IMG/VR virus record: IMGVR_UViG_3300012953_000012
Location: 96,001 to 160,000 of that record
DNA length: 64,000 nucleotides
Reading direction: 5' to 3' (one strand)
Source: a virus
Taxonomy: Duplodnaviria; Caudoviricetes
Both the position numbers and the translations under genes were made by a program. The notes under the pieces are model-generated. The model did not search any database. It saw only the letters and a list, made by a program, of their open reading frames with translations, and was not told where the DNA came from. Below, one piece after another: positions 3,431 through 38,000 of this stretch (position 1 is its first letter; the number at the start of each line of letters is the position of its first letter).

Positions 3431-4276
3431 ATGATGAACCTCACCGACTCTGACCGCGCGGCCATGACACGACTGGCCAACCTTCTCCCCGAAGGCTCTG
3501 CCGACCGGGACGTCCTTCTGGCGACCGCTGGCATGGACAAGGAGGCCGCCTCCGCTGGTGAGTTTGCTTCCTACATCCTCTCCAAGCAGGAGGGTGACCC
3601 CATCCCCGTGAAGGAAGTCGAAGGCTTCGTCAAGGGTCTGGGCATCCGCGTCAGCGAAGGCGGACGGTCGAAGCGGAGCGGCGCTCGTTGGCAGCGCGGC
3701 GACCGGGTCTGCATCAAGGGTGACAAGCACAAGGGTGACGGCGTTGAGGTCTACCGGGCACACGACCGAAAGGTTGGTTTCGTTGTAGACGACGGTGGTG
3801 GGCAGAAGGGTGATCCGGTCACAGTCAAGTTTGGCGGTGAAGAGATCCTTTTCCCCAACGCCCAGCGTAGTCGCGGCGTCGGTATGTACAAGGCGACCGA
3901 CTACTCCAGCATGAAGGGCTACGGCCCCATCGAGATCATCTACAAGGCCAACCCCAGCAGCAGGCCCAACCCCGACCAGAAGCAGATCGCTGCCGAGTAT
4001 GTCTCTCGCGGTGACGCTCGCGGCGAGAGGCGCAGCCTCAACTACTACTCAGGCTGGGTTTTCATCGCGGCCAAGGGTGGCAACGGCTTCTACTTCTCCA
4101 TTCTCTCTCAGCAGCGGGCCAGCCAGGACGCTTGCGCCGAGGGTTTCCCCTTCCGTTCGTTCAATCCGGCCAAGGCTGAAGTCCTCTACATCGGACGCCT
4201 CGGCAAGCGCCCTCGTGGGTGGGAGAAGGACTGGGAAGCCTTGCAGATTGCTGCGGCGGCTGCGGCTGCGAAGTAG
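3431..4276 (+). CDS. hypothetical protein with shared N-terminal tag and SH3/KOW-like segment
   Basis: GGAG RBS, start at 3431. N-terminus SDRAAMTRLANLLPEGSADR matches that of ORF 50761. GDRVCI..VGFVV..VTVKF resembles an SH3-like barrel. Confidence 0.8.
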   Translation: MMNLTDSDRAAMTRLANLLPEGSADRDVLLATAGMDKEAASAGEFASYILSKQEGDPIPVKEVEGFVKGLGIRVSEGGRSKRSGARWQRGDRVCIKGDKHKGDGVEVYRAHDRKVGFVVDDGGGQKGDPVTVKFGGEEILFPNAQRSRGVGMYKATDYSSMKGYGPIEIIYKANPSSRPNPDQKQIAAEYVSRGDARGERRSLNYYSGWVFIAAKGGNGFYFSILSQQRASQDACAEGFPFRSFNPAKAEVLYIGRLGKRPRGWEKDWEALQIAAAAAAAK

Positions 4277-4319
4277 CGGTAGTCCTGGGGTAGTGTGGCG
4301 AGAACCCCTACAGGAGACC

Positions 4320-4628
4320 ATGATCATGGCAACCGCAAAGACTCGCAAGACTCGCAAGAAGACCACCAAGAAGGCCGCTCCCGCTGAGATGGCCATCGCC
4401 CCTGACGTTTGGGCTGCGATCCAGCAGTTCCGTCAGCGGAGTGACCACTACGTCGGTGAGATTGGCCGCATGGAGGTTCGCAAGGCTGCATTCGTGTCGG
4501 AGATCGATGCGATGAACAACCAGGCGAACCAGATGCTCCGACAGGAAGGCACGCGGCTGGGAATCCCCGATGGGACTCAGTGGCGGGTCAACCCCGAGGG
4601 GAAGGTGATCCTGGGCGACGAGGGCTGA
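4320..4628 (+). CDS. hypothetical protein, basic N-terminus
   Basis: AGGAG RBS. KTRKTRKKTTKK N-terminus then a helical region. Confidence 0.75.
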   Translation: MIMATAKTRKTRKKTTKKAAPAEMAIAPDVWAAIQQFRQRSDHYVGEIGRMEVRKAAFVSEIDAMNNQANQMLRQEGTRLGIPDGTQWRVNPEGKVILGDEG

Positions 4629-4631
4629 CCC

Positions 4632-4645
4632 GGTATCTGGCCTAT
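4632..4645 (+). promoter_or_regulatory. TAG-N5-CTAT motif variant
   Basis: GGTAT CTGGC CTAT, 35 nt upstream of 4681. Confidence 0.5.
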
Positions 4646-4680
4646 CCGTTCCGCCGTTGTATGACTGACGGGAGCGTGCC

Positions 4681-6798
4681 ATGACTACAGGATGGGAGCC
4701 AGTATCGGGGTCATTCCCATGGCCCCCGGCCAACGGCACGGCCATGTCCTCCTTCCATCGCGAAGGTGCGGACATCCGTTGGGATGATCCGTCTACCTTG
4801 ATCACGGGTCCTTCCACACCCTCTACAAGGGCCACAGTGTCCATCACGGTGGTGGGCATCCCTGATGTCCTTACCGCTTCCACAGCCTCACTCACGCTCT
4901 CCGGTGCCCCTATTGCAGCAGGGGACACCATCGCGGTGGGTGGGGTTGTGCTCACGTCGGTAGCCGCAGCCCCAGGGCCGGACGAGTTCGACGGGTCCTC
5001 TGGGGACACAGCGGTCGTGGCCGCCAACATCGCCACCGCCATCAACGACGGTTCGGTCGGCACCTGGGGCATCGCCTCTGCCACGGCTGCTCTCAATGTG
5101 GTCTCCCTCACAGCGGACACGGCGGGTGAGGTCGGTGACGAGATCACGTTGTCGTCCGGCAGCGACAGGATCACGGCATCCGGGAGCACTTTCTCTGGCG
5201 GCCTGGACCCAGACACCCTGACCATCGGGGGCCAGGTGCTGTCCGCCGAGACCACCCGGACGGCGGGCGGTATGAACTTCGGCGTGGGGCCGACCAACTT
5301 CGACACCGCCGCGAGCATCGCTGCGGCTATCAACGACACCACCAACGACCTGGGGTTCATCACAGCCACCACGGATGGGGTCATCGTACTCGTCGCGGCG
5401 TTCCTGGACGGAACCATGGGTGATGGGATCACCATCGCCACGACGAACACCACGGCGTTTGAACTGAGTGATTCCCGGACGACCGGCGGGACCGGCGTTG
5501 CTTGCGAGGGCAAGTCCAACAGCGAGTGGCAGATCCTCGGAGTCAACGTCTACCGCAGCGACACCGGAGAGCGCGGCCCCTACTTCCGGGTCAACCGCAT
5601 CCCGGTCATGACCAACTTCTTCCGCGACAAGACGGACATCGTCGAGGTCACAGGTGAGGTGATCCCGTGGGACACAGGCTGGGTCTATAGGGGATCAGCG
5701 CCCAACCAGAAGGACGTCTGGCGACTCCAGACGAGAAACCGGCCCATGGTCAAGCGCACCGGGAACGCCGTCGCTGCCGACTCGCCTTTCGACGTCGAGG
5801 TCCACATCGACGGAACACGGACGCCCGTATCAGCCGTGTTCGGCCCCAACGGTCAGGTCACACTCGACACGACCCCTGTGTGGGACCCGAGCACCGAGTC
5901 CTGGGTCACGTTCACACCGCCCACACCCACGAGTGCGGTGACCATCAACTACTACTGGAAGCGCGGCGACACCCTGGTCAACACCCTGGACCGCCGCCAC
6001 AAGGTCTTCTACCGCCTCACCACGGTCGCCATTGACCCCACGGGGGAGAGCCCGACCGGCCTGGTTGAGACCCCGCTGGGATACACCGAGCCGATCTCCC
6101 CCATGAACAGTGAGAGGTTCGACTACATCTGGCGGGAAGCCGTGCGGCGGAACCGCTGGATCCTGGAGCAAGGCGGTGAGCGCGTGAAGTTGTTTCTCCG
6201 CAGGGTCACCGGGGTCAAGTGCGACTGCGTGTGGGACGAACGGCTGGAGGAGTACAGCAAGCAGCCCTCCAACACCTGCCTGGAGTGCTACGGCACCGGG
6301 TTCGTCGGAGGCTACGAAGGCCCCATCGACATCATCATCGCCCCGGACGACGCAGACCGGCGCGTGACGCAGACACCCAACGGACGCCGACTGGAGCACC
6401 AGTACGAGGTGTGGATCGGACCCAGCCCGATGCTCTCGCAGCGGGACTTCATCGTGAAGCAGAACGGTGAACGGTACGCGGTTGGCCCTGTCCGCCGGAC
6501 TCAGGTGCGTGGCCTGATCCTCCAGCAAGCGTTCGCCATCGGCTACCTGGACACGGGCGACATTCGCTACCGGGTGCCCATGGGCGAGTTGGAACGCCTT
6601 CCGTGGCCCGAGACTCGCTACAGCAACCCCGAAGACGCACCGTGCGAGAGTCCGCAAGATCCGCATCCAGTCGGCTACGACTACCAGGCAACCCCGATGA
6701 TGTCGGAAGCCGCGAAGATCCCAGACGGACGGGAGCAACGAGGCAGGACCCCCGTGTGGCAGAACATCACCTACGGTGGTGGCGGGGGTAAGAAGTAA
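4681..6798 (+). CDS. putative head-closure/neck protein with two inserted beta-rich repeats
   Basis: C-terminal RRNRWILEQGGERV..CDC..CLECYGTGFVGGY..LSQRDFIV block is typical of large-phage neck proteins. The N-terminal half has two A(A/S)IA(T/A)AIN repeats. Confidence 0.6.
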   Translation: MTTGWEPVSGSFPWPPANGTAMSSFHREGADIRWDDPSTLITGPSTPSTRATVSITVVGIPDVLTASTASLTLSGAPIAAGDTIAVGGVVLTSVAAAPGPDEFDGSSGDTAVVAANIATAINDGSVGTWGIASATAALNVVSLTADTAGEVGDEITLSSGSDRITASGSTFSGGLDPDTLTIGGQVLSAETTRTAGGMNFGVGPTNFDTAASIAAAINDTTNDLGFITATTDGVIVLVAAFLDGTMGDGITIATTNTTAFELSDSRTTGGTGVACEGKSNSEWQILGVNVYRSDTGERGPYFRVNRIPVMTNFFRDKTDIVEVTGEVIPWDTGWVYRGSAPNQKDVWRLQTRNRPMVKRTGNAVAADSPFDVEVHIDGTRTPVSAVFGPNGQVTLDTTPVWDPSTESWVTFTPPTPTSAVTINYYWKRGDTLVNTLDRRHKVFYRLTTVAIDPTGESPTGLVETPLGYTEPISPMNSERFDYIWREAVRRNRWILEQGGERVKLFLRRVTGVKCDCVWDERLEEYSKQPSNTCLECYGTGFVGGYEGPIDIIIAPDDADRRVTQTPNGRRLEHQYEVWIGPSPMLSQRDFIVKQNGERYAVGPVRRTQVRGLILQQAFAIGYLDTGDIRYRVPMGELERLPWPETRYSNPEDAPCESPQDPHPVGYDYQATPMMSEAAKIPDGREQRGRTPVWQNITYGGGGGKK

Positions 6799-6813
6799 CG
6801 GGAGGCGAGGACC

Positions 6814-7113
6814 ATGACGGAAGCAGTGCTCAAAGAGTTGGAGACCCTGAACCCGGAAGCGTTGCTCCTGGAGCCGCGTGAGGTTTATGACCCTGCTCTG
6901 GTTGGGGTCACGGATGACCCCAACGACAGTTGGCCCCGCCAGGCTCGCATCCACGTTGCTGTCTACGACGTAGACAAGTGCATCGAAGCGATCATGGGCT
7001 GGATGGACTGCGACTACGAGTCGGCTCTGGACTGGTTCGGCTTCAACACCTCGGGTGCCTGGGTGGGTGAGGGCACCCCGACGTTCACCGTCCTGGGCGA
7101 AGACGAGCACTGA
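6814..7113 (+). CDS. conserved phage hypothetical protein
   Basis: AVYDVDKCIE..WFGFNTSGAWVGEGTP pattern. GGAGG upstream. Confidence 0.75.
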   Translation: MTEAVLKELETLNPEALLLEPREVYDPALVGVTDDPNDSWPRQARIHVAVYDVDKCIEAIMGWMDCDYESALDWFGFNTSGAWVGEGTPTFTVLGEDEH

Positions 7114-7117
7114 CCTC

Positions 7118-7131
7118 GCTACCCCTTCTAT
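7118..7131 (+). promoter_or_regulatory. TAG-N5-CTAT motif variant
   Basis: GCTAC CCCTT CTAT upstream of 7157. Confidence 0.4.
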
Positions 7132-7156
7132 AGGGGGAGGGCCTGTAGGAGGCACC

Positions 7157-7981
7157 ATGAGCCAAAAACGCGCTGCTGTTCGATCTGTCCTCGCAAGGAT
7201 GCGGACGGCGAACCCTCTCGCCACCACCCTCCGGGGAATGGTCCGGGGGCTCGTCGGTGAACCCACCGTCAAGGGCTACAAGGCCACCCCCAGAGGGATC
7301 GTGGTCGATCTGTCTGCTTCCGTCCTCCTGCCACCCTCCGAAGTGCTCAAGACGGTCCAGTCAGCACCTCCGAAGGATGCCCTTGCTCTCCTGAGTGCTG
7401 ACCCCACGCTGATGCAGTCACACTTCTCCATGGACTCTGCTGTGGTTGCGCTGCCCTTCGACAAACTGCCCGACAACCAGTTCAAGGCCATGGTCAAGAA
7501 GATGGGCGGTCTGTCCCTGTACTCGGATGCCATACTGATCGCCCTGTTGGAGGGTCGGGAGCCGTCGTTCCCGGACCCTGAGAGCGGCCTCCCAGAGTTG
7601 TCGCGGGGCTTCGCAAGCCAGTACATCCAACGCCCCGGAAATCTCGGGGCTGTTCCCGAGTTTTACGTTCGACAGCCCATCAAGAACGGCGTGTTGGACG
7701 GCTTGGCATCGGACCATGTGGACGGGGCGGGGACGGTTGGCCGCATCGACATCGGCACCTTCCCCCTCTCCTCGCTCACGGTGTTCATGACGCAAGTCGG
7801 TAAACCTCCCGGCAAGGGGACAAAGTGGTTCAAGAATGGGGACGGATGGCTCACAGAACAAGGGACTGTGGACTTCCCCGATCAGCCTGTGTCGGTGTAC
7901 ATGAGCCAGCCCTTCAAAGTGAAACTCACATCGCTCCCCCGCAGTGCCATCGAGGCCCTGGTCAAGGAAGCGGCTCAATAG
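7157..7981 (+). CDS. hypothetical protein
   Basis: AGGAGG RBS before ATG 7157. The N-terminus has KRA/RTA motifs. Confidence 0.8.
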   Translation: MSQKRAAVRSVLARMRTANPLATTLRGMVRGLVGEPTVKGYKATPRGIVVDLSASVLLPPSEVLKTVQSAPPKDALALLSADPTLMQSHFSMDSAVVALPFDKLPDNQFKAMVKKMGGLSLYSDAILIALLEGREPSFPDPESGLPELSRGFASQYIQRPGNLGAVPEFYVRQPIKNGVLDGLASDHVDGAGTVGRIDIGTFPLSSLTVFMTQVGKPPGKGTKWFKNGDGWLTEQGTVDFPDQPVSVYMSQPFKVKLTSLPRSAIEALVKEAAQ

Positions 7982-7983
7982 CG

Positions 7984-7997
7984 AGTAGTTTCTCTAT
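7984..7997 (+). promoter_or_regulatory. TAG-N5-CTAT upstream motif
   Basis: AGTAG TTTCT CTAT upstream of 8023. Confidence 0.55.
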
Positions 7998-8022
7998 GGC
8001 CTTCTCCCTGTAGGAGGCCGTC

Positions 8023-8337
8023 ATGGCGAGATGCGGGCGTTGTGGGCTGTGGTCGAAGTACCCGGACAGCCATCACGAGCAGAAATACGCAGGGGTGTGC
8101 CTCTGGTATCAGCACCGTCTGATGGACGACGACGTGTTTGAGGACCGGGAGTGCAAGGACTTCTTTGAGCGTGTGCCTGGCCTGATGCCGATGGACCACT
8201 TCGACTACAAGATCAAGCGGGACAACCTCGGTGACGCCTACACCCAGGCACGCTTCAGCAAGCGCCTGGCGCTCATGGGGGCCGTGCTGTCGGTGATCTC
8301 ACTGGCCCTGTCGCTATGGAAGGTGTTCGGTGCCTAA
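8023..8337 (+). CDS. Cys-rich protein with C-terminal TM helix
   Basis: CxxC..C..C pattern and hydrophobic tail. AGGAGG RBS. Confidence 0.75.
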   Translation: MARCGRCGLWSKYPDSHHEQKYAGVCLWYQHRLMDDDVFEDRECKDFFERVPGLMPMDHFDYKIKRDNLGDAYTQARFSKRLALMGAVLSVISLALSLWKVFGA

Positions 8338-8893
8338 GGAAGTCCGCCTCAGGGGTGTTTACGGGAGACCGTTGATCAAGCGGGGCGAGCCCACCACGGT
8401 GCAGATGCCTATGCCCATGCTCAAGAAGGCCGCCGGGATCATCCTGGACTCCATCAAGAAGGAGATCATGAAGGACATGGCGAAGACGGCGGGCCTCCGA
8501 GGTCGGGGCAAGCCCGTGCCGCTCCCGGACAGCCGGAAGTTTGTGGACTCGTTTTCCTGGAGGGTCGCGGGCAAGTCCACCATCGAGTTCACTTCCACCT
8601 GGCCCACCGCCTCGGCCCACACGCTCTCCCCTGGTGAGAAGGGGAAGGCTACGGAGCCGTACCGCATGACCTGGCTCACACAACCGAAGGTCAAGACGGT
8701 GCCCTTGACCACCCAGGAGGGCCGGGTGATCTTCAGGACTGCCCCCCTCACCACCGCCAACGCATGGGTCCACCCCGGCTTCCTTCGCTATACGTTCATC
8801 GAGCGAGGTGTGGAGAAGGGGCGGGTAAGGGTGTTTGAGGAGATGGCCGAAGAGATTGTGGGTCTGCTCCTTGAACAAGGAGACCTTTTCTGA
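8330..8893 (+). CDS. putative tail-completion/neck protein
   Basis: Basic protein ending HPGFLRYTFIERGV, resembling the HPG..F motif of tail-completion proteins. Coupled to neighbours. Confidence 0.5.
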   Translation: MPKEVRLRGVYGRPLIKRGEPTTVQMPMPMLKKAAGIILDSIKKEIMKDMAKTAGLRGRGKPVPLPDSRKFVDSFSWRVAGKSTIEFTSTWPTASAHTLSPGEKGKATEPYRMTWLTQPKVKTVPLTTQEGRVIFRTAPLTTANAWVHPGFLRYTFIERGVEKGRVRVFEEMAEEIVGLLLEQGDLF

Positions 8894-9567
8894 TGTCTTT
8901 GCGAGTCGATGCGGACAAGCCAACCCCTATCCAGGATCTCGGGATCACGGTCGGTCCTGGGCCTGTCTGGATTGAACAGGAGGACCTGCAACGGTCCACA
9001 TGCCTACAGACCCTCATAAGGCTGGGGCATGTGCGGGTATCCTCCAACCCGAGGTGTCGAGTGTCCAAAGATCCCCCCAAACCGAAGGTCCACACCGTTG
9101 GGATGTCACGCCCCAGCAAGGTGCCTCGTGCCCATGTCAGCCACACGACCACCCACCACACGACCTCAGAAGTCATCAAGGAGGGGGTCACGGCAGAACA
9201 GGCACAGGAGATGGTGAACAAGGCTGCCGCTGAGGGTGCCTCGCAAGCCATCGCCGCCATGACTGCACAGTTGCAGGGCATCATCGGTCAAGCGAGCCAG
9301 CCAACGGCAGCCATCGAACAGGTGGTTCAGCAGGCTGTGTCGCAGGCGTTGGCCTCAGCCCAGATCAGCCGTTCGGGTCCCGCACCCCTCTCCGGGAGCA
9401 GTGACGACCTCGTGGTCAACGGCCCCGAAGAGCCCTTGTTCATTCCCACGGGTATTGTCAGGTCTGATACCGAGAACCTAAAGGTCCAGTCCGATTCCTC
9501 TGCTGATGCAGGTGGGTTGGACAACGCGGCATCCGCGCTCAAGGCCCTCCGCAAGAAGAAGTCGTAG
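8893..9567 (+). CDS. hypothetical protein with Ala/Gln-rich helical region, upstream of actin-like gene
   Basis: Overlapping stop/start with 8330 gene. Helical middle and basic tail. Confidence 0.75.
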   Translation: MSLRVDADKPTPIQDLGITVGPGPVWIEQEDLQRSTCLQTLIRLGHVRVSSNPRCRVSKDPPKPKVHTVGMSRPSKVPRAHVSHTTTHHTTSEVIKEGVTAEQAQEMVNKAAAEGASQAIAAMTAQLQGIIGQASQPTAAIEQVVQQAVSQALASAQISRSGPAPLSGSSDDLVVNGPEEPLFIPTGIVRSDTENLKVQSDSSADAGGLDNAASALKALRKKKS

Positions 9568-9577
9568 GAGATCCCAC

Positions 9578-10594
9578 ATGGCAACCAAGAAGCAAACTCC
9601 TCTCGGAGTCGGTCTGGACATCGGCACCATGAACATTGTCTCGGCACGGCGCAAGGACGACGGACAGGTTGAGACCAGCCGGATGCGAGATGCGTTCCTG
9701 GATCTGGACGCAGGTGCCAAGCGGATGCTCAAGTTGTCCGGGGTCAACTTCATCGACCACGGGGACGACGGGATCATCGTCGTCGGTGACGCGGCCATGG
9801 AGATGGCCAACGTCTTTGGGCGCGAAGCCCGCCGCCCCTTGTCGCAGGGCCTGATCTCGGCAGGCGAGATGGACGCGCTCGATGTCCTCGGGGTCATGAT
9901 CAAGAACGTCCTGGGCGAGCCAGCGACGAAGGACGAGGCGTGCTACTTCTCGGTTCCTGCCTCCCCGGTCGATGCTGACCGTGACGTCGTCTACCACAAG
10001 GGCGTGTTTGAACGCATCGTGAGCGAGTGTGGGTTCGACGCCTACGCGGGCAACGAGGCGATGGCCATCGTCTACGCTGAAACTGCGGCGGACGGCTTCT
10101 CCGGTCTGGGCATCTCGTTCGGGTCCGGCATGTGCAACCTCGCCCTGGCTGTGTCGGGTGTAGAGGGACTGTGTTTCTCCGTGGCGCGTGGTGGTGACTG
10201 GATCGACGCTGGAGCCGCGAAGGCAACCGGCAGCACCCAGAGCCGCATCTGTGCCCTCAAGGAGAGAGGCATCGACCTCATGGACCCCAAAAGCCGTGAC
10301 GAGGAAGCCCTCGCCCTCTACTACAAGAGCCTGATCGAGTACTGTGTGGACCAGACGGCCCGCGAGTTCATGAAGATCAAGGACCGGTTCGCGCTCCCGA
10401 AGGCCATCCCCATCGTAGTCAGCGGGGGGACCTCACTGGCTGGCAACTTCCTGCCCTTCTTTGAGCAGGTCTTTGAGAAGAAGCGGAAGAGATTCCCCAT
10501 CGAGGTCAGCGAGATCAGACACGCCTCGGACCCCCTGAACGCTGTTGCACGAGGTCTGCTGATTCAGGCTATGCAGGAGCACGAGGAAGACTGA
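9578..10594 (+). CDS. actin-fold (ASKHA) ATPase, MreB/ParM/FtsA-like
   Basis: Phosphate-1 GLDIGTMN, connect-1 NEAMA, phosphate-2 GISFGSG, GGDWID, adenosine SGGTS, connect-2 DPLNAVARG. AGGAG RBS before 9578. Confidence 0.9.
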   Translation: MATKKQTPLGVGLDIGTMNIVSARRKDDGQVETSRMRDAFLDLDAGAKRMLKLSGVNFIDHGDDGIIVVGDAAMEMANVFGREARRPLSQGLISAGEMDALDVLGVMIKNVLGEPATKDEACYFSVPASPVDADRDVVYHKGVFERIVSECGFDAYAGNEAMAIVYAETAADGFSGLGISFGSGMCNLALAVSGVEGLCFSVARGGDWIDAGAAKATGSTQSRICALKERGIDLMDPKSRDEEALALYYKSLIEYCVDQTAREFMKIKDRFALPKAIPIVVSGGTSLAGNFLPFFEQVFEKKRKRFPIEVSEIRHASDPLNAVARGLLIQAMQEHEED

Positions 10595-10956
10595 TGAACA
10601 AGCGCATCGCCAAGAAGATCGTCAAGGGCCACGAGCGGGGCTCCTCTCGCAAGAAGACCTGCACTCCCTGGGCCACCCTGGTCAAGGCGTTCCGACGCCT
10701 CGGCAAGAAGCCCCCCGAGCCCATCGCCAAGGTCAAGGAGGCCGTGGAGGAGGTCAAGCAGGAGGTCGTCGAGGCTGTCGAAGCCGTCGAGGACGCTGTG
10801 GAAGAGATCACCGAGGCGGTGGACCTGACGAAGATGAAGGTCGCCGAGTTGAAGGCGCTCGCAAAGGAGCGCGGGATCAAGGGCATCTCCAAGATGAAGA
10901 AGTCCGACCTGATCGAAGCCCACGACAGGTACGTCTACCTGCGGCGCTTGTCGTAG
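10594..10956 (+). CDS. Rho-N/HeH-like domain protein
   Basis: DLTKMKVAELKALAKERGIKGISKMKKSDLIE is a Rho termination factor N-terminal-like motif. Confidence 0.8.
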   Translation: MNKRIAKKIVKGHERGSSRKKTCTPWATLVKAFRRLGKKPPEPIAKVKEAVEEVKQEVVEAVEAVEDAVEEITEAVDLTKMKVAELKALAKERGIKGISKMKKSDLIEAHDRYVYLRRLS

Positions 10957-10995
10957 AAAAGACGAAGCCCCCGCCGAAGGGGTGGCGAGGGCTTC
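10957..10995 (-). terminator. terminator between convergent genes
   Basis: Minus strand GAAGCCCTCGCC..GGCGGGGGCTTC stem with one G-U pair, followed by GTCTTTTCT. Confidence 0.65.
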
Positions 10996-11031
10996 TGACT
11001 CCGCAGAGAGCAGAGTCGGGGAGACAGGTGC

Positions 11032-11238
11032 TTAGAAACGCACGGTGATCTTCGGCATGTTGCCAGTGGTGGCCGAGGTCGGCGCACAGCAAGCGTTGGG
11101 CCGGACAGTGTTGCCGGTGTTGGCCATCGTAACGCCGTTGATGGGCGTAGCGGTAGCACTGGACCCACTTCCCTTGACCCGCAGACGGTAGAAGGGTGGG
11201 ACGGGCTGGTACTCAGAAGTGGTGGAACGAGTGGGCAT
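11032..11238 (-). CDS. small Thr/Ser-rich hypothetical protein (68 aa)
   Basis: GGAG-TCCCC-ATG start, as in other genes here, and its own TAG-N5-CTAT motif upstream. Confidence 0.65.
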   Translation of the reverse strand: MPTRSTTSEYQPVPPFYRLRVKGSGSSATATPINGVTMANTGNTVRPNACCAPTSATTGNMPKITVRF

Positions 11239-11281
11239 GGGGACTCCAGGTTGAGATTGAGGGTTCACCTATCCCCCTGAC

Positions 11282-11295
11282 ATAGACTCCCTACC
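11282..11295 (-). promoter_or_regulatory. TAG-N5-CTAT upstream motif (minus strand)
   Basis: Minus strand GGTAG GGAGT CTAT. Confidence 0.55.
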
Positions 11296-11300
11296 GCAGA

Positions 11301-11939
11301 CTATTCCTCGCCGGGTCGGTAGTCGTCCCACAGCCAAGGGGCCTCGTCCTCCGACTCGTCGTGCATCTTCTTGATCTTCAAGTACCTTCGCAGGCCGTCC
11401 CGCTGCTCTACCGTCATCCGGCACAGGAGGTCGTAGAGGCTCTTCGCGTCCTCGGCGTCCTTCATCGCGGTGTGTGCCCCCTCCTTCGACCACCCCAGAA
11501 ACTCACGGATGCGGTCCATGCCCAGGCGTTCAAGGCCCAGCGGGACCAGGTGCTCCCAGGCCAGGGTCACGGTGTCCACCTTGTGGTAGGGGATGCGGCG
11601 TCTGACTCCAGCCCGCTTGAAGTTGGCTGAGATCATCGCCTCGTCGAACCCGACGTTGTGCCCGCAGATCACAGAGTTCCTTGTGATGTCCGCGATGCGG
11701 TCACCGACCTCGGCCATCGTGGGGGCGTCGTCCCAGCGGGAAGGGTTCGCCGCGTAGCCGTTGACCTCCAGGGCCTTCGGATGGGCGTCCTCAATGCGTT
11801 GAGGCTTGATCAACGTGTGGAATCGGGTCTCACTCCCGTCCGGCTCACAGCGGATCACAGCCACCTCAATGACCTCGGCCACCTGGGGGTCGAGCCCGGT
11901 GGTTTCGGTGTCCAGGAAACAGATTGTCTTGCCTTGCAT
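11301..11939 (-). CDS. DEDDh 3'-5' exonuclease (DnaQ-like)
   Basis: FLDTETTG (ExoI), GHNVGFD (ExoII), HTAMKDA (ExoIII). Confidence 0.93.
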   Translation of the reverse strand: MQGKTICFLDTETTGLDPQVAEVIEVAVIRCEPDGSETRFHTLIKPQRIEDAHPKALEVNGYAANPSRWDDAPTMAEVGDRIADITRNSVICGHNVGFDEAMISANFKRAGVRRRIPYHKVDTVTLAWEHLVPLGLERLGMDRIREFLGWSKEGAHTAMKDAEDAKSLYDLLCRMTVEQRDGLRRYLKIKKMHDESEDEAPWLWDDYRPGEE

Positions 11940-12067
11940 AATGGTGCTCCACTTTCACGGGCTGTACCCAAAATGTACCCTTGCGGTCCCCCCTCCTTCG
12001 CCACTTTGTCTGAGGAATCCAGGACTTTGGATCCTGGGGGGCAGACTTACTCTCCGGTCGGGTAAGG

Positions 12068-12637
12068 ATGGGGGGAGGTAGTGCTTTGACTCGCAAACTC
12101 AAACCTGTTGACATCCCGGTCCCGGAACCTTTCCGGTCAGCCATGCTATCCGTCGCGGTGACCAACGAGGACGGCGGTTTCACGACTGTCGGCACCCTCG
12201 TGCAGGAAGCCCAGGAGGCTATCCGTCGTGCCAACGAAGCACTGGCGGAAAACAGCCTGGTGGAGTTGGCTGCGAAGGACATGATGAAGGGTCACCGTCG
12301 TCGTGGCAACGCCTCTATCGAGGTGGGTGCAGACGGCTCGGTGCGGCTACGGATCTCCTACTCGACCAGGCGGGACGGCCCCAACGTCACGACCGCTCCA
12401 GGAGGGGCAGGGCTTCCGTCACTGGACGCCTTGCGGAAGGAGGCCCAGGATCTGGGGCTCGACGTCAGCCACCTGGGACGCAGGAAGTTGGAGATCATGG
12501 ACCTGATCACCAACGCCCGAGACATCATGCAGAACCACCATGGAGGGACGGAGCCCGTTGATCCCTTGCCGCGACGTCTACGGGACGAGGTGTCTACCAC
12601 CACCCCCCTCCACACAAAGAAACTCCCGCCTCGGTAG
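12068..12637 (+). CDS. hypothetical protein with C-terminal HeH/LEM-like motif
   Basis: SLDALRKEAQDLGLDVSHLGRRKLEIMDLI. Start uncertain. Confidence 0.65.
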   Translation: MGGGSALTRKLKPVDIPVPEPFRSAMLSVAVTNEDGGFTTVGTLVQEAQEAIRRANEALAENSLVELAAKDMMKGHRRRGNASIEVGADGSVRLRISYSTRRDGPNVTTAPGGAGLPSLDALRKEAQDLGLDVSHLGRRKLEIMDLITNARDIMQNHHGGTEPVDPLPRRLRDEVSTTTPLHTKKLPPR

Positions 12638-13768: not shown

Positions 13769-14356
13769 ATGGCCCACGACAAGAACCGATTCGGAGGCAT
13801 CGCGGGGAGCAACTACACCCCGATGTCGGAGACTGAACAAGAGGTCCTTCAACGGCTCGTGGCTACTCGGGACATGGACGTCTACATCAAGGGATGGGGC
13901 TACATCAAAGGCGTCGAGGGCGCGATTGCAGGGGACCTGCGGCTGGCTCTCCCTCTGGTCCTGGACTTCGACCGTCCGGCAGTGCCGATGCCGGTCTACT
14001 ACTTCGACCTGGAACTCCGCACGTCGTCGGGGATCCTGCTGTTCGCCGAGCGCCAGAGCACGGTGTACGACAGTCAGCCACTCCTGGTCAGCGCAGGCAC
14101 ACACCTCTCGATGATCTGGGAGATTGCCATCCGGCACATGGACCCCAAGATCGTGAAGGCGTACAAGCCGGGGGCCACGGGACTCACCTCGCGGTGGCAA
14201 GACCGAGACACGGGCCAGATGACCATGTTCGGCAACACCCGCATGAGGGGCGACGACAGGAAGGCTCTTGTCAACCTCAGGAAAGGCGAGGCGTTCGCAA
14301 AGGCCGACACCGTCCGCATCGCTCAGAAGGCCACGAAGACCTCCCAAAAGAAGTAG
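13769..14356 (+). CDS. hypothetical protein
   Basis: AAGGAG RBS before ATG 13769. Confidence 0.75.
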   Translation: MAHDKNRFGGIAGSNYTPMSETEQEVLQRLVATRDMDVYIKGWGYIKGVEGAIAGDLRLALPLVLDFDRPAVPMPVYYFDLELRTSSGILLFAERQSTVYDSQPLLVSAGTHLSMIWEIAIRHMDPKIVKAYKPGATGLTSRWQDRDTGQMTMFGNTRMRGDDRKALVNLRKGEAFAKADTVRIAQKATKTSQKK

Positions 14357-14423
14357 ACCCCCCACACTTACAGCGCGGAGGGTCAGACTTTCAACCCTGT
14401 AGGCACAGGGTTTCACGTCAGCG

Positions 14424-14448
14424 GGGCTATCAGCCCCGTGCGGCGAGA
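14424..14448. repeat. 25-bp inverted repeat, left arm
   Basis: GGGCTATCAGCCCCGTGCGGCGAGA is the exact reverse complement of 14786-14810. Confidence 0.9.
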
Positions 14449-14609
14449 ACGTCCTTGCGGAGTTCGGCCAGATCCTTGCCCGCCTGGCTCGCAGCCTTGC
14501 GGAGTCGGGTGCCGGGGGCTCCAGCCTTCCCGCCGTCGCATTTTTCGGCGTCGGCACGGGCGGCCTGAAGGTCAGCGATGATGCGGTCGATCTTGTCTGT
14601 CATGCTCAT
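14430..14609 (-). CDS. histone H1-like protein (Hc1 family)
   Basis: ADAEKCDGG..APGTRLRKA..ELRKDV matches the Hc1/bacterial H1-like pattern. AAGGA RBS. The frame is also open up to 14852. Confidence 0.8.
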   Translation of the reverse strand: MSMTDKIDRIIADLQAARADAEKCDGGKAGAPGTRLRKAASQAGKDLAELRKDVLAARG

Positions 14610-14785
14610 GGTGTTTTTCCTTGTAACGGGGGTTGTGTAAAGCGGGGGGTCAACACGAATGACCTCCCATTGGTACTCTTTGGTGGCTTCATCGAGGGCG
14701 ACCATCCCGGCCTCCCACTCACGACCGGCCCTGAGCGCGGTCTCCAATCCAACATACTCGTCGGGCAACTCCCCCGATTTGTGCT

Positions 14786-14810
14786 CTCGCCGCACGGGGC
14801 TGATAGCCCG
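14786..14810. repeat. 25-bp inverted repeat, right arm
   Basis: TCTCGCCGCACGGGGCTGATAGCCC. Confidence 0.9.
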
Positions 14811-14848
14811 CGTGGTGGACCACGCGACTTTGTAGTGGTCGGCTCGGA

Positions 14849-15220
14849 TCATGGCTCCTTGTCCTCTCCACGTTTGCCGAGGCGAGTCACTTGCTCGTCG
14901 TCGGGGTGGGGGTCAAGCAGATGATTGAGCCGGTATTGGTGGCAGATGTCGTTGGCGATGCTCCGCAGGTGGCGGACGATCAACTCGACCTCGTGGCTGT
15001 ACTCGGGCTGGCGCAGGGTCAACTCGGAGGCGGGGGTGCCCTTCCGCAACTCCTCCATGTCCACCGTGACGGCGTTCCAGCCGTAGACCTCTTCGCCCCA
15101 CACCACTTCAAAGTAGGCGACCGGCGTAGTGTCCAGGTCAGGCACACCAGGCTTGCCTTCCAAGGCCAGCCGGATGCGGTGCTTGTCGAGGTCAATGACC
15201 TTGTCGTTGTCGTCAGCCAT
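14849..15220 (-). CDS. hypothetical protein
   Basis: Phage-typical N-terminus DKVIDLDKHR. Coupled to the downstream frame. Confidence 0.75.
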   Translation of the reverse strand: MADDNDKVIDLDKHRIRLALEGKPGVPDLDTTPVAYFEVVWGEEVYGWNAVTVDMEELRKGTPASELTLRQPEYSHEVELIVRHLRSIANDICHQYRLNHLLDPHPDDEQVTRLGKRGEDKEP

Positions 15221-15228
15221 GCGTCACC

Positions 15229-15504
15229 CTACCCTCGCCAGCCGGTTTTGACGCCGAGGAGGGACTTGACCTCACGGAACCTGTCGCCGTCCTGGATGTA
15301 GCGGTCGATCTGCTCCAGCAGCCCAACCGTGCGTCCGAAAGTCAGCGGCTCGCTGGTCTTCTCCAGGAGCCCAGGGCGTTCCCACATGCCCACATCCGGG
15401 GCATCGACAGGGGCATCGCAGGCCCACACGCAGTAGGCATGACGCTCACCTTTGTCGTCGGTGACCTCAAAGCCGATGCAGTCGCAGGAGTACTTTCGGA
15501 GCAC
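15229..15504 (-). CDS. hypothetical protein
   Basis: GGAGG RBS. Contains CDC and CVWAC. Confidence 0.7.
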   Translation of the reverse strand: MLRKYSCDCIGFEVTDDKGERHAYCVWACDAPVDAPDVGMWERPGLLEKTSEPLTFGRTVGLLEQIDRYIQDGDRFREVKSLLGVKTGWRG

Positions 15505-15576
15505 ATGCCCTCCAGGTGGTGATGGGCTCTCTTACCGAGATGGGGCCGGGTGTGTGCCCCCACAGCCGAGAAAACC

Positions 15577-15590
15577 AATAGGCCGCCTAT
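15577..15590 (+). promoter_or_regulatory. TAG-N5-CTAT upstream motif
   Basis: AATAG GCCGC CTAT upstream of the thermonuclease gene. Confidence 0.55.
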
Positions 15591-15616
15591 CCCCCACCTC
15601 CTTCAAGGAGGCCGTT

Positions 15617-16006
15617 GTGTCCGCTGCCAAGATCCCGAGTCCGTATGTCTACCGTGCCGAGGTGATCTCGGTCTACGATGGCGACACCATCACCGTCATG
15701 CTTGATCTCGGCATGGGCATCGTCCGTAAGGCGAAGTGCAGGCTGCTGGGGATCGACACTCCAGAAATCCGCACGAAGTCCGCAGCCGAGAAGGAGGCTG
15801 GCTACACGGCACGGGACCGCGTTCGGAAGTTGATCCTGGGCAAGACCGTGGTGCTGCACTCGGTAGCGAAGCCCGACAAGTACGGACGCTTGCTGGTCAA
15901 GGTGTGGGCCGAGGACGGCTCCTGTGTCAACCAAGTGCTGCTCGACGAGGGCCTGGCCCGCGAGTACGACGGCGGAACTAAGGTGTCCTGGGCCTCATGG
16001 ACCTGA
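15617..16006 (+). CDS. thermonuclease (SNase) family nuclease
   Basis: VYDGDTI, RLLGIDTPE, DKYGRLL, NQVLLDEGLA. AAGGAGG RBS before GTG 15617. Confidence 0.92.
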   Translation: MSAAKIPSPYVYRAEVISVYDGDTITVMLDLGMGIVRKAKCRLLGIDTPEIRTKSAAEKEAGYTARDRVRKLILGKTVVLHSVAKPDKYGRLLVKVWAEDGSCVNQVLLDEGLAREYDGGTKVSWASWT

Positions 16007-32028: not shown

Positions 32029-35000
32029 GTGGGATTCAATCTAAACGGCTTTGTGCTTCGTCCAGCGCGTGTGGCGTCCGGCAACGATCCAGACACCAAC
32101 GAGGCTGTCACAGGCGTAGACCGTGACCACATCCTTGCCAACGACCGCAGCACGCCTGTTGCCAATGAGACGACCCTGGAAAGCCTCGGCTACGACGCAC
32201 GCCCCACAGGGGCAGCCGTCCTTGTGGAACCCTATGCCGACATGTACCGGGCAGCGGTGCTTGAACGGCCTCAAGACAAGCAATCCACCGAGCAGTACTG
32301 CTTGTTCGCGGCGACCACAGGATCATTGAGCACCATCGAAGACACCGCGATGGCTATCGTAGGGGGCACCGCCACGGCTGACCCCATCGCAGGATCACTC
32401 GACGTGGACGGTGGGGCCTACACAGACGGCACCTTGAACTTCTACATTCGGGACGGCGGTCAGCGAGACATCAGTGAGGTGGTCTCCATCACGATCCTCA
32501 AAGGGCCGGTTGGTGGTGGCGCACTTCCGACACCCGTGGTGTGCGAGGGAACCACTGACGCATCGACCGGGAAGTTCACTCTCGACGCTGCTGCCGAAAC
32601 CGCTCTGAGTGGTGGCTACTCCGAGGACCGGGGAGACAAGGTGGCTGCGACAGCCTATGTCCTCGCCAGTCCGTCCTTCTGGTGGTCCAGGAATGATGAC
32701 GACCTGACCCGGTTCGGTTGGGACGGGAAGACCTCACGATGGTTGCCGTTGAAGGGTGGTGCAGCACAGTCCCTGGGCGCGGTGCTTCCTGATGAAGGCT
32801 ACAAACTCGTCCCTCCCCCCACCCGGTTCCAGGTTGACGACACACTGCCCGGTGCGGCGACTGCCCCGGACGCCTACGCTCTGGTCCGCTGTGGCCTCTA
32901 CGCGGACGCTGACAGTACGCCTCTGAGCATCCTGGTGGTGTCAGACACAGCCGCCCAGGACGGCACCTGGCAATCTGGAGGCTCCCCCGACTGGGATGGC
33001 TACAACGCCGTCGTGGGGGTCACCAACGGTGTGCTGCTCCTCAACCCCGCCTTTGCGGGTGCCCAGGCAGGACGCACACTCTGGTACAACGCCGAATCCT
33101 TCCAGTCGGATGCGGACGGTGATCTGGGGGTGGTGGCTGACCTCCCCACAGGATCAAACCAAGGCTTCCCGGCTCTCTCGCCTGTGCCCGGACCTACGGA
33201 CAGACCCTTCCTCCGCATCGGATCACGGCGCTACATGACGCCTATCCCTGTAGATCAGGACGAAGCAGACCCGGTTGCTGGGTTGACGGGCCTCCCCTCA
33301 CCCGGCTCCGTGCCCTCAGGTTCGTTTTACTGGAGCAAGGCCACCGGCAAGATTGTCCTCTCAGCCATCGACATCGCGAAGTGCATTCCCGGCTCCTCGG
33401 TGGGGGATGGGGACCCCGCCGATTACGAGATTCCGTTCCTGGGCGCACGGCTCTACTACGACGGAGTGGCCCTCAGCACACAGCCCCTTCCACTCAGGGA
33501 AGCCGTTCCGGCCCTCAATGCCGCAGGCAACTCGCTGGACGGGTCCGATCCTGTGGAGGACCACACGGTGCCCACGGACGGCGCGGTTTACGTCCCCCGC
33601 GCAGTCTGTATGCCCCCTCCTGGGGTGAGCGGTGTGCGGTGGGAGCCGGACGGCACCGGAGACACACCGGTCGTCCCTGGCCCCAGCGCCGTCGCGGTCA
33701 ACGAGGAGCCGCAGACCCGACCCAACGGAACGGGTCTGGTTCGCAGGATCACGGGCAGCGCGAGAAGGACCCTCTACGGGGATTCCTTCTTCTTCGCAGA
33801 GGAGTACGCCTACGAGAACACCGACGTCAAGGAGTACAACGACGACCTCAATGACTTCAAGTTCAAGGTGCGGAAGAACGAGGTTGAGATCTCCCGGATG
33901 GTCGCCCCCACGCAGCCTGCGGGGGGGTGGACGAACACCTCTCGCATCCAGTTGCGGCGCAGGAAGGTGAAGGGGCAGCCTCTCTACTTCCGTCAGGCTG
34001 AGGTGATCCCGTCCGTCCATGCCGATGAGGCCAGAATCTATTCCCGCCTCGCCGAGCCGTACTATGTCGCCGGTACAGAGACGCTGCGCTTCGTTATCGA
34101 CGGAGTAGTCCTCACCTGGCTGGGATCATCACTGAATGCGACCGGCACGGTTGCCGACTACACAGCGCAGGACGTGGCGGATTCCTTGAACGCCGTTCAG
34201 GCTGGCATCGCAAGCACCCTGCGTGGTCGCGTCTACCTTCGGGCTGCCAGCCTCACGACAGGAAGCGTGGAGATCGGCTGGAACACGGACCCCGGCGACG
34301 GGAGCACCGACTACAAGGACCTGTCGGGCCACGCTGCGCTGGGGTTTCTCCCCGGCTGGCGCGTGGACATGGCGGATCCCGACGACCGTTTCCGCTGGCT
34401 TCCCGACAATGGGGCCTACCTCGGGGTCTTCCGCAGCCCTGTGAACATGGACCGGACGGCATCTACGCCGGACATCCGGGCCGTGGGCAGGGTCGAAGAC
34501 ACTCCAATGATCACAAGCATCAACGCGAACCCGTTCGTTGCTGTGTCCCCACCCCCGCTTCTGGACGTACCTGGCTACACGGACGTCTCTCACTTTGAAG
34601 TCGTCGTGGGCCTCCTGACCATCCCGATGGAGAACTACCAGACAAGCCTGGAGGTGGGGGTCGTCTACGACTGGGTCAACGACCGCTTCATCTGGTGCGG
34701 AGAGGGGAAGACCAACGGCAAGCAGGTGCCGTACCCCACGTCCATGCTCCAACTCGACAACGTGAGTGTGTTCCCGCAGACCGTCAGCCCTCTCGCCATG
34801 GACGCTGGGACCTACGGGCTGAACCTTCGCCGGGCGACTGACGTAGCCGGGCGGACCTTGCCCGCCGACTTCCCCGTGCCGGAAGACCTCACGGGGTCAG
34901 ACACCACTATAGATTTCTTGATGCCTGGCGACGGCGGCCCCGGCCAGGCTCTGCTCGTGACCCCAGAGGGGGCCGAGGTTGCCTCTGGAGGCAAGGGCGA

Positions 35001-38000
35001 GACCGCAAGCGGAGTGGACGTCTTCCTCGACCCGAACGTCGCGGACCAGACTGACCTCTACAACGCAGTGGAGGTCGGCTACTTGCTCCACATCCTGAGC
35101 GGTGACAACGAGGGCATCTACACCATCACGCTCAAGGATGACACGACGGGGAACGCGATGTTCAGGGTGGTTCCACCCTTCCCGGCGACCGACACCAGCA
35201 CTCAATGGCGCATCTACGAAGCGAAGCCGCGCTCTGCTGTGGACATGACCCTGCTCGCGGACGTTCAGCAGGTCACCACGAGCCACTTCCCGGAGAACCC
35301 CTTCAAGGTCCGCACGTTGACTTCGGTGGGGCAGGTGGAGGTCACCCCGCTTGTGGCCAATGTCGCTGATGCCCTTGCTTCCGGTCGCACGGTGTCCGTG
35401 CGTCTGGGGCTTGCCCCCGTTGCCGCCAACGAACGAACGGTGGCCTACCTGAAACAAGGCTCCAACCTGGGGGCCATCGCGGCGTCCGGGCTGCTGTGCC
35501 CTGACCCCACTGACCCTCACCTGACGCTCTCGGGGCCGGACTCCTACTTCCAGATCCGCATCGGAGCGAAGGTCTACTCAACGGCAGCGGGGAACATGAC
35601 CCTGAATGTGGGGACGGCTAACGACGACGAAGTGGACGTGAACACCACCACAGGAGAAGTCCTGATTGGGGTCAACGTGGTCTCCGACCTGGCCGGAAGC
35701 ACGGTCTACTACGACCAGTTGTTCCTGGCCTCCACGGACGTACCCGCAGGCACTTGCGAGATCGCCCCGCTCGACGGAGCCGTGAACCTCAGCAACCAGG
35801 ACCTGTCGGATTTCGCTACGGGGACGGCCTACTTTGTCGAGCAGATGGTCACCGACAACGACCTTGACGCCAAGATCAACCCCCTGAACGGAAGCCTGCT
35901 GTTCATGCAGCCTCTCCGCGCCATGCAGATCGTTGAGGTCAACTACTTCCAGGCAGACACCAACGGAGACAAGAAACTCGATGACAGCGGGAACCCCATC
36001 GAGATCACCGAGTTCCTGCCGCTCATGGTGACCCTGGAGACCTGCGCCTACGTCAACGATACCGAGTGGACCTACAACCCCACAGGCCGCACGCTCTCCA
36101 CCACCGTGGAGCCGATGATGTGGGTGGGATCAAACCTGATGAACTACGCCGGGGTCAAAAACGCCACGGCGGCGGACGGTGTGCTCACCATCACGGCACA
36201 GGAGGCAGACCTCCTGGAGACTGATGCGGCCACGGTAGTCAGGATCAACTACGGCGTGCTTGAAGCCTTCGGCGGCGAGACCTCCTACACGGTGTCGAAA
36301 CCCCCTGTTTTCTGCAAGCCTTTCTGGATTGAGGCTGACTCCGACACCTTCACACTGGAGACAGACCGCACAGACGACTTCCAGCCGGGCCTCCTGATGC
36401 TCCTGGGGCCGGTGCCCCTTTACATCAACACCAGCGCCTACAACGCCACCACAGACACCACCACAGTCACCGTCTTCCCCACCCCTGAAAACGAGGTCGG
36501 CAGCCGCTCCCCTGGAGGAGATGCGTCGTTGACCCTCTCGGACTTCGTGGTGAGCACCTCTCGGGGAGGCGACACCGGCTTCATGCCTCTGCTGGACACA
36601 GACCCCACTACAGGCACCCCGCTGCTGGAGAGCGACAAAGGGCAGACCACCGTGTCCTTCTACGGCGACTGTCGCTACTACATGAAGACGGACCACCTGC
36701 TGGAGATCGGCGGCTACCCCTACCTCATCGTCAACTCCGAGATGTCGGACGACGGCTACTACACCAACGTGTTGCTGGCCTCCCCGCTCTACAAGCAGCA
36801 CGACAACTCCGAAGAAATCCGAGTGTCCGTCCGGCGCGTCTACCTCGGGCCGCCGGTTGACTTCACCGGGATCAGTCCCTTCTTGTCCACGGAGGAGTAC
36901 GACCTGTTCCTCATGGGAAGCCTCGACAGTGCTGGGAGCCTTCTGCCGGGCAAGGTGCTCGTCGAGGGCCTCGACTACACGGTTGAGCCCAACACGGGCG
37001 ACGTGACCTTCCAGGCACCTTCGCAGGGCGCTCTCCAACCGGGTGAGTACCTGCACTTCCGCTACACACGGCTCATCTCCGTGGGTCCGGGCGTCGTGGA
37101 AGGAGCCGTTGTCTACCCGGTCTACCGGGCGAAGTACCTCTACATGACCACACCCTCGGTCGAGAACCGGCTCCTGGGGGCGGTGTTGAAGGGTCAGTAC
37201 ACCTACCGCAGCCAGGACTCATTCTTCTTCGCGGTGCAGGCATTGGAGGAGTACCTCGGCGAGGTGTCCGTCATCTCGGCCTCGCAGGGTGTGATCCCAT
37301 TCTCCGGCGGGCCGACCTTCTTCAATGACCCCGGCAGTGACCCCAACAAACAGGGCTCTTTGGGGCTGCGCGGCGGAACGGTGGACGCCCAGGACCAGGA
37401 TCGGGCAGCACGGGTCTTCATCGAGTTTTTCAACGGAGTGATCCTGGCCTTTGAGCAGGTCCTTGAGGCCATCGACGGCAGGATCATCGGTGACCGGGAC
37501 GGCAAGTTTCGCTTCTTCATCGGGCACGACAAGCGGTACGCACCCCCCGGCTACGAGGACGCCATCACCGGCAACCTCAACCAACGGGAGTTGTGGCGCA
37601 CCATCATCGACGCCTGGGCACCCTCGGCGTTTGCGGCGGACGACGGCTACTACCGCACGAAGGACTACCTCTACTTGCCGACCACAGCGACAGTCGCAGA
37701 ACCCACGACTCGTCCAGGTGAGACCAGCGGGATCACGATGGACCCGGTTGGATTCTCCGTCTTCACGGAACGTCAGCGCAGGCTGATCAAGAACGACATG
37801 GACGACCGCATCCTGAAAGGGATGGGCCGCCCGAAGGTCGAGTTCATCGTCCCCCTCATGTTCCCGCTCGTGCGGTTCAAGGGCAACTTCGATGACATGT
37901 GGGAGGATCACCGATTCTCGCGGCTGTTCCCGACAGAGACTGAGCACTTCTCACGGCTGTTCCCTGGAGTCAACTACGACCCGGACGCCGGATATGCAGG

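Follow-up and report, generated by a model that had tools for sequence, protein, structure and literature searches.

What does an actin-fold ATPase do in the genome of a huge tailed phage, and with which of its neighbours does it work? The question is raised by the interval 9578–10956 of a 64,000-nucleotide stretch of DNA (the window, to which all coordinates refer), which comprises bases 96001–160000 of the 205,564-bp IMG/VR virus record IMGVR_UViG_3300012953_000012. CheckV estimates this record to be 46% complete, from which a full phage genome of roughly 0.45 Mb is derived. The original prediction for this locus had treated the interval as one gene for an actin-fold ATPase; the actin-fold gene stands, but its end at 10956 does not. 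The frame stops at 10592–10594, and the interval holds two genes, namely the actin (9578–10594, plus strand) and a second, 120-aa gene in another frame (10594–10956, plus strand), which carries a Rho_N motif. With moderate confidence, the actin is read here as a volactin-type filament driven by ATP that acts through an adaptor with two binding ends, is produced along with virion neck genes, and organises late infection.

The 338-aa actin matches the Pfam family Volactin (PF25216) at an E-value of 2.6e-77 and scores 260.9 bits where the cut-off is 35; its residues 11–331 correspond to positions 3–321 of the 321-position profile. The match is reproduced from the genome record at 260.7 bits. No other Pfam family is found by hmmscan at E-values up to 1, including ParM and MreB/Mbl (PF06723); no match is obtained in PHROGs, and the single sequence yields no meaningful match in the PDB. 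All five motifs of the actin fold are kept, including phosphate-1 (GLDIGT), connect-1 (NEAMA), phosphate-2 (ISFGSGM), adenosine (VVSGGTS), and connect-2 (DPLNAVARG), and they are conserved in an alignment of 86 diverse relatives, which bears out the earlier statement that all actin-family ATPase motifs are present. Strict or almost strict conservation among these relatives is seen for D14, G16, T17, E160, G182, G184, G283, and G284, and in the comparison with MamK, Glu160 falls on the Glu of SEP in the connect-1 motif. Meanwhile, the usual Asp of the phosphate-2 loop is replaced by Ser throughout the family, with iSfGaGmvN lying under VDIGAGTTD of MamK in the profile alignment.

The AlphaFold2 model, built from the 86-relative alignment, has a mean predicted local distance difference test (pLDDT) score of 95.6. 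The top Swiss-Prot model is the volactin of Haloferax volcanii (D4GU28; E = 1.3e-37, template modelling (TM) scores of 0.93/0.91, root-mean-square deviation of 1.5 Å over 334 residues, 38% identity), followed by salactin with a TM score of 0.71. The nearest solved chains by fold are the MamK filament (Z 28.9, 294 residues, 3.0 Å), the BeeR filament (Z 27.3), and MreB (Z about 26), after which come actin, FtsA, and crenactin with Z 24.5–25. In the profile search against the PDB, the matches at E < 1e-3 are MamK (2.4e-14), BeeR (2.3e-10), MreB (3e-7), and FtsA (1e-6), and the next is EutJ, an actin-fold protein that does not form filaments, at about 8e-3; ParM is not among the profile matches to solved structures. 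MamK, BeeR, and MreB, the nearest solved structures and the only strong profile matches, all form filaments. They differ from the window's actin in that the identity is 16–19%, the actin lies outside their Pfam families, and their tasks, namely aligning magnetosomes, building tubules, and synthesising the cell wall, belong to cells and not to phages. Judged by its sequence, the protein is a complete actin-fold ATPase and a clear member of the Volactin family, from a filament-forming lineage. The volactin of H. volcanii forms long dynamic filaments in vivo, which grow and collapse with their tips touching the membrane, and it acts in cell-shape transitions (PMC10869688).

The same comparisons bear on a reading without filaments, in which a non-polymerising actin-fold ATPase would act as a neck or tail assembly chaperone, like the Hsp70-like proteins of some viruses. 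Such a role would suit the operon shared with a neck-like gene, the nearness in fold of the Hsp70 nucleotide-binding domains (Z 24.6), the presence of viral Hsp70-like proteins among the best matches in a viral structure library, and the atypical phosphate-2 loop. It has to be set against 38% identity and a TM score of 0.93 to a proven filament former, and against a bare 338-aa actin core that is without a substrate-binding domain. Furthermore, the profile searches reach neither Hsp70 nor sugar kinases, the groups in which a misassigned protein had been expected to fall; its kin are volactin, MamK, BeeR, MreB, and FtsA. A chaperone function is accordingly rated very unlikely.

The actin is a phage-encoded protein of a huge tailed phage, and its relatives are widely spread. 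They occur on 53 IMG/VR contigs at 48–96% identity, with contigs of up to 381 kb. Further relatives come from two GenBank entries labelled "uncultured phage", one of 485 kb (59% identity) and one of 595 kb (31% identity). The metagenome protein collections contain 2685 relative clusters at 90% identity (E up to 1e-5), all unnamed, and 1064 representatives at 50% identity (E up to 0.001). Some phage-type relatives (such as P0006) are approximately 700 aa long, owing to an HNH-domain intein in the phosphate-2 loop at around residue 188–194. Five larger related records contain one actin copy each, except for one 297-kb record with two. In this record (IMGVR_UViG_3300025141_000016), two full partner–actin modules, L005 and L007, lie about 160 kb apart on opposite strands, and their actins are 86% and 80% identical to that of the window; this double module reflects either a true duplication or the joining of two related phages in one chimeric assembly. 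In addition, the 381-kb record with locus L024 (IMGVR_UViG_3300014204_013734) belongs to the IMG/VR class provirus, and the other actin-bearing records are classed as linear.

With which genes the actin travels can be read from the 53 loci, across which one order recurs on one strand: a 705-aa protein, a 187-aa protein, the gene here called the partner, and the actin. In the window, this run contains the following features.

4681–6798, plus strand: 705-aa protein that opens the series of conserved module genes; 44 of 53 loci have a homologue of it before the actin, in the same orientation.
6814–7113, plus strand: 99-aa open reading frame (ORF) of the same run; in the ORF list, with a gene call in the ENA record.
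7157–7981, plus strand: 274-aa ORF of the same run; gene call in the ENA record, G+C content at third codon positions (GC3) of 0.73 for the longer frame 7055–7981.
8023–8337, plus strand: 104-aa ORF of close relatives only; homologue in 8 of 53 loci, GC3 0.83.
8330–8893, plus strand: 187-aa conserved protein immediately before the partner gene; homologue in 38 of 53 loci with order and strand kept.
8893–9567, plus strand: conserved partner (candidate adaptor), 224 aa; profile matches in 47 of 48 loci, alignment of 29 positional orthologues.
9578–10594, plus strand: Volactin-family actin-like ATPase, 338 aa; PF25216 at E = 2.6e-77.
10594–10956, plus strand: 120-aa basic protein with a C-terminal Rho_N/SAP/HeH motif (Pfam); lineage-specific last gene of the operon.
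10964–10995, no strand assigned: G+C-rich hairpin of 12 pairs between converging genes; found in a terminator-like scan and scored on the minus strand.

The run is packed as tightly as the original prediction had described. One-base TGATG overlaps join the 187-aa gene to the partner gene at 8893 and the actin to the Rho_N gene at 10594, where the last base of the actin stop is the first base of the following ATG, and a gap of 10 nt separates the partner from the actin (9567/9578). The actin ATG at 9578 is preceded, seven bases before, by AGGAG, which overlaps the stop of the partner gene. GC3 values of 0.72–0.93 back the plus-strand genes 4681–6798, 8023–8337, 8330–8893, 8893–9567, 9578–10594, and 10594–10956. 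The hairpin at 10964–10995 is probably a two-way terminator; beyond it lies a minus-strand ORF (11032–11268, 78 aa, weak coding signal), and the next confident gene after the operon is an RNase_T exonuclease gene on the minus strand (11301–11939; Pfam 1.4e-19, GC3 0.85). Because the hairpin is followed by minus-strand genes, the actin and the Rho_N gene are taken as the last two genes of the plus-strand unit. Two frames, 11658–12065 and 13894–14568 (both plus strand), are dropped as genes for their low GC3, the first being covered by the minus-strand RNase_T gene. No family match exists in Pfam or PHROGs for the 187-aa protein, and the 274-aa ORF has neither a Pfam or PHROG match nor a homologue among the 53 actin loci.

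The conserved companion of the actin is the partner gene. Its 224-aa product contains an N-terminal domain of about 70 aa, a variable middle rich in Pro, Ala, and Gln, and the C-terminal motifs EEPLFIPTGIV and LDNAASALKALRKKKS. Among 29 positional orthologues, the partner evolves fast, with 20–30% identity where the actins are 60–70% identical. The kept features are the N-domain of about 70 residues, the motif (E/D)xP(L/V)(F/Y)IPxG(I/L)V, and a C-terminal LD(D/E)AAxALKAxRK with a basic tail. Of the 48 loci whose flank measures 800 nt or more, 47 contain exactly one ORF recognised by hidden Markov models (HMMs) of the N-domain and the C-terminal motif, upstream of the actin and in its orientation; the 48th retains the N-terminal domain only. 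These HMMs were built from the 29 loci and match the remaining ones as well. No Pfam match is found for any of the 29 members, and the window's partner has no PHROG match and no Atlas relative. The product of 8893–9567 is the conserved partner of the actin and a candidate adaptor. In three loci (L022, L025, and L031), the partner and the actin are separated by an additional gene of about 260 aa, whose product ends in DASCDSFL...RFWE.DL; from the appearance of this C-terminus, it is possibly a mobile endonuclease-type gene.

Where the partner might contact the actin is suggested by a comparison with cellular volactins. A distant relative of the actin in the bacterial contig L056, with a weak N-terminal ParB-type helix-turn-helix (HTH) match (Pfam E 2.9e-6), adjoins a second, short volactin, and the latter as a query against genome assemblies retrieves 31 loci, nearly all in metagenome-assembled genomes of Planctomycetota. 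The gene upstream in these loci encodes 240–550 aa and is unrelated to the phage partner, and its product ends like SALDRLKAMRGGG...KK or DALAKLKKLRGS. A single pattern, A-x3-L-[KR]-x-[LMIA]-[RKQ] within the last 45 residues, was tested against all other ORFs of 80 aa or more; as it was written after seeing the phage set, the Planctomycetota set is the independent test. The pattern occurs in the upstream ORF of 20 of 28 Planctomycetota loci, against 2 of 678 other ORFs, and in that of 36 of 48 phage loci, against 1 of 1913. When the two partner families are aligned by hhalign, the C-terminal motif is the only match (E 0.0019, probability 14%). A branch with 99% support separates the IMG/VR actins from those of Planctomycetota in a tree built from 210 volactin domains, which means that the motif has persisted over a deep division of the volactins. 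The shared C-terminal peptide may represent the actin-binding end of volactin partners.

The cellular loci display further arrangements. The Planctomycetota operon (L056:5555–10676 and L060–L090) has three genes: a partner that resembles a coiled-coil protein and has SALDRLKAMR-type motifs at its end, a short volactin (about 336 aa), and a long volactin paralogue. The clade of the long paralogue is found across the Planctomycetota loci, and the ParB-type HTH match is seen in L056. Another volactin relative, P0055, is fused to Wzz/BY-kinase domains.

Does the filament, if formed, move DNA? In the positioning systems of the ParMRC and AlpAC types, filaments would push or hold phage DNA through a site-recognising adaptor, a part that either the Rho_N protein or the partner's basic tail could play here. 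Several features are compatible with such a role, including the combination of an actin with a small co-transcribed partner, as in ParM/ParR and AlpC/AlpA (PMC4446434), the polybasic tail at the end of the partner, the weak ParB-type HTH match of the long volactin paralogue in L056, and the nucleic-acid-binding motif of the downstream gene. The last is located at residues 77–111 of the 120-aa protein and is matched by Pfam Rho_N (8.8e-12), SAP (7.4e-6), and HeH (0.0019). The distribution of this gene tells against it: a Rho_N motif gene is present in the window and in just 4 of the 53 related loci (L001, L002, L003, and L006), and it is missing even from L004 and L005, whose actins are 86% identical to that of the window. 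The Rho_N gene is a recent clade-specific addition rather than a core adaptor, and as it occurs in the closest relatives only, its product is not the conserved adaptor. In addition, a scan of 4000–12500 for centromere- or iteron-like repeats gives only short matches of two or three copies within coding sequence, so that no iteron-like array lies in or around the operon; the module is beside a neck-like gene, not replication genes; and no ParM, ParR, or ribbon-helix-helix family match is obtained. The ParM-style pairing of the actin with a downstream nucleic-acid-binding gene, as originally proposed, is not supported, given a gene in only four related loci and no centromere-like repeat array, and DNA positioning is considered unlikely.

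There are differences between this module and both of the model systems. ParMRC likewise combines an actin-like ATPase and a small partner in one operon, and ParR is reported to bind the ParM filament via a C-terminal peptide. However, the partner lies upstream here, so that the gene order is reversed, and there is neither a ParM/ParR family match nor a set of centromere repeats. In the case of AlpC/AlpA, from prophage CGP3 of Corynebacterium glutamicum, a phage actin-like gene is also co-transcribed with a small adjoining adaptor gene; AlpA binds AlpC and DNA at its own promoter, and the alpAC genes are early (PMC4446434). By the searches run, in which no such relative appeared, AlpC is not of the Volactin family. 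In contrast to AlpA, the window's partner has no DNA-binding family match; a search for a repeat site gave none, and the module adjoins a neck-like gene. The CGP3 element is small and temperate, compared with a phage of approximately 0.45 Mb here.

The genes after the actin vary. In 19 other loci (including L008:7012–8259), a conserved family of about 400 aa comes next after the actin. By tblastn and HMM, this family has no homologue in the 205-kb record, and it has no Pfam or PDB relative; the 392-aa and 404-aa ORFs of the window were considered as members and rejected, as neither gives an hhalign match.

The upstream context may be informative about when the filament would be made. The AlphaFold2 model of the 705-aa protein (pLDDT 75.6) contains two recognisable parts. 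Residues 64–177 resemble the outer decoration domain of tail sheaths, podovirus nozzles, and flagellins, the best match being 8kee_C (Z 12.1, residues 65–173, 91 residues, 2.0 Å). Residues 481–635 form a Cys-rich core, conserved in all homologues and with four invariant Cys, which resembles phage neck and stopper proteins, including the 812 neck (8q01_S, Z 7.9), the Pam3 neck (Z 7.0), the 812 stopper (8qgr, Z 6.8), the phiKZ neck (Z 6.8), the T1 stopper (Z 6.3), and XkdH (Z 6.0). Middling as these Z values are, the matches agree on a single type of protein. In sequence searches, 4681–6798 has no Pfam match and a single weak PHROG of unknown function. A neck context for this gene is plausible from the model. 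Of the neck and tail-completion genes that had been placed upstream, a neck-like domain in 4681–6798 thus receives modest backing (Z 6–8), and useful Pfam or PHROG matches are absent.

This linkage also bears on the possibility that the filament has no phage cargo and remodels the host, altering its shape or envelope growth for very large virions or disturbing its own MreB or volactin. The sole studied member of the family acts in shape transitions of H. volcanii, with filament tips touching the membrane (PMC10869688), the amphipathic basic C-terminus of the partner could anchor to membrane, and cellular volactins occur in bacteria such as Planctomycetota. On the other side, the genes that stay linked to the actin are a phage-only partner and a neck-like gene rather than early genes of host takeover, and membrane targeting is suggested by the appearance of the sequence alone. 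Host remodelling is regarded as quite unlikely. VolA (HVO_2015, D4GU28), the H. volcanii volactin, belongs to the same PF25216 family as the window's actin, and each of the two proteins is a bare actin core (about 340 aa) with Ser in the phosphate-2 loop. VolA, however, is haloarchaeal, whereas the window's actin is phage-encoded and fixed beside a partner found only in phages and a gene that carries a neck-like domain; the rod-to-disk shape change of the host cannot as such be the role of the phage actin. Within the family, it is for VolA that filaments have been seen.

The preferred reading of an ATP-driven volactin filament with a two-ended adaptor can then be set out as a mechanism. Family, fold, motif integrity, phage origin, synteny, and the shared motif are its foundation; polymerisation, partner binding, timing, and cargo are what we infer from them. 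The actin would bind ATP and assemble into dynamic filaments in the infected cell, where it would work as a pair with the product of 8893–9567. The C-terminal peptide of the partner (A-x3-L-K-x-hydrophobic-R, then a basic tail) would dock on the actin, and its N-terminal domain would bind something else, either cargo or an anchor. The pair is co-transcribed and translationally coupled with the gene carrying the neck-like domain; owing to this coupling, the filaments would probably be late, helping to assemble virions or to place capsids or DNA.

Several points weigh against this mechanism. By fold, the Hsp70 nucleotide-binding domains score almost as high as the filament formers (DnaK Z 24.6 versus MamK Z 28.9), and the filament inference therefore rests on the sequence kinship to volactin. 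The phosphate-2 Ser, although family-wide, may affect hydrolysis. The genes after the actin in the window's phage differ from those of most relatives. The neck-like assignment of 4681–6798 depends on middling Z scores of 6–8, and the other genes of the operon are without an assigned function, so that the label "late/structural" is not secure. Moreover, the C-terminal motif comprises few residues, its definition followed inspection of the phage set, and its hhalign probability is only 14%; an amphipathic helix followed by a basic tail could bind membrane or DNA instead.

A broader version of the filament reading is offered only tentatively and is, on the present evidence, doubtful. According to it, a widespread lineage of phages of 0.4–0.5 Mb would possess a late, actin-based cytomotive apparatus, a counterpart of the PhuZ spindle, coupled to capsids, necks, or DNA by a phage-only adaptor whose peptide would be a volactin-binding motif of ancient origin, present in the volactin partners of Planctomycetota too. 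The PhuZ spindle of the nucleus-forming jumbo phages, the functional parallel named in the original prediction, is likewise a phage-encoded cytoskeletal polymer of very large phages, with a tubulin fold in place of the actin fold of the window's protein. No tubulin-family match is found in the window's record or in five related records (fragments, 42–72% complete).

The remainder of the window contains some further features. The plus strand encodes, at 64–1902, an NAD-dependent DNA ligase of the bacterial type, which is full-length and includes a BRCT domain; such an enzyme fits a bacterial host better than an archaeal one. The actin operon is separated from the next plus-strand run by a block of nucleic-acid enzymes and binding proteins, including the RNase_T-type exonuclease (11301–11939, minus strand), a protein with a histone-H1-like Hc1 tail (14430–14852, minus strand; E 1e-4, just under the curated cut-off), and a staphylococcal-nuclease-like (SNase) protein (15452–16006, plus strand). 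One open frame of 3824 aa extends over 32029–43503 on the plus strand without a Pfam match and is preceded by frames of 1107, 1468, and 802 aa, none of which has a Pfam or PHROG match. Pfam and PHROGs give nothing for most other plus-strand ORFs tested from 1910 to 46372, the exceptions being RNase_T, SNase, the sub-threshold Hc1, and one weak PHROG.

As for what is already known, the phage polymers PhuZ and AlpC/AlpA (PMC4446434) and the volactin family have been described. The literature consulted contains no paper joining volactin and phage in a relevant sense, the jumbo-phage reviews include no phage actin of such a kind, and a volactin fixed with a partner in huge phages was not found described. 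The present analysis adds the recognition of the Rho_N gene as a clade-specific extra and the motif shared with the planctomycete volactin operons.

Among phage cytoskeletons, only two are well studied, namely the tubulin spindle of PhuZ and the prophage actin AlpC. If the proposed mechanism is true, the module would constitute a second, actin-based way to organise a very large infection, across dozens of contigs and thousands of metagenomic clusters. Meanwhile, the volactin family has been named recently and studied so far in a single haloarchaeon, and the pair described here would make it testable in simple two-protein systems, for which the motif shared by the phage and planctomycete partners provides a concrete candidate for a peptide–actin interaction.

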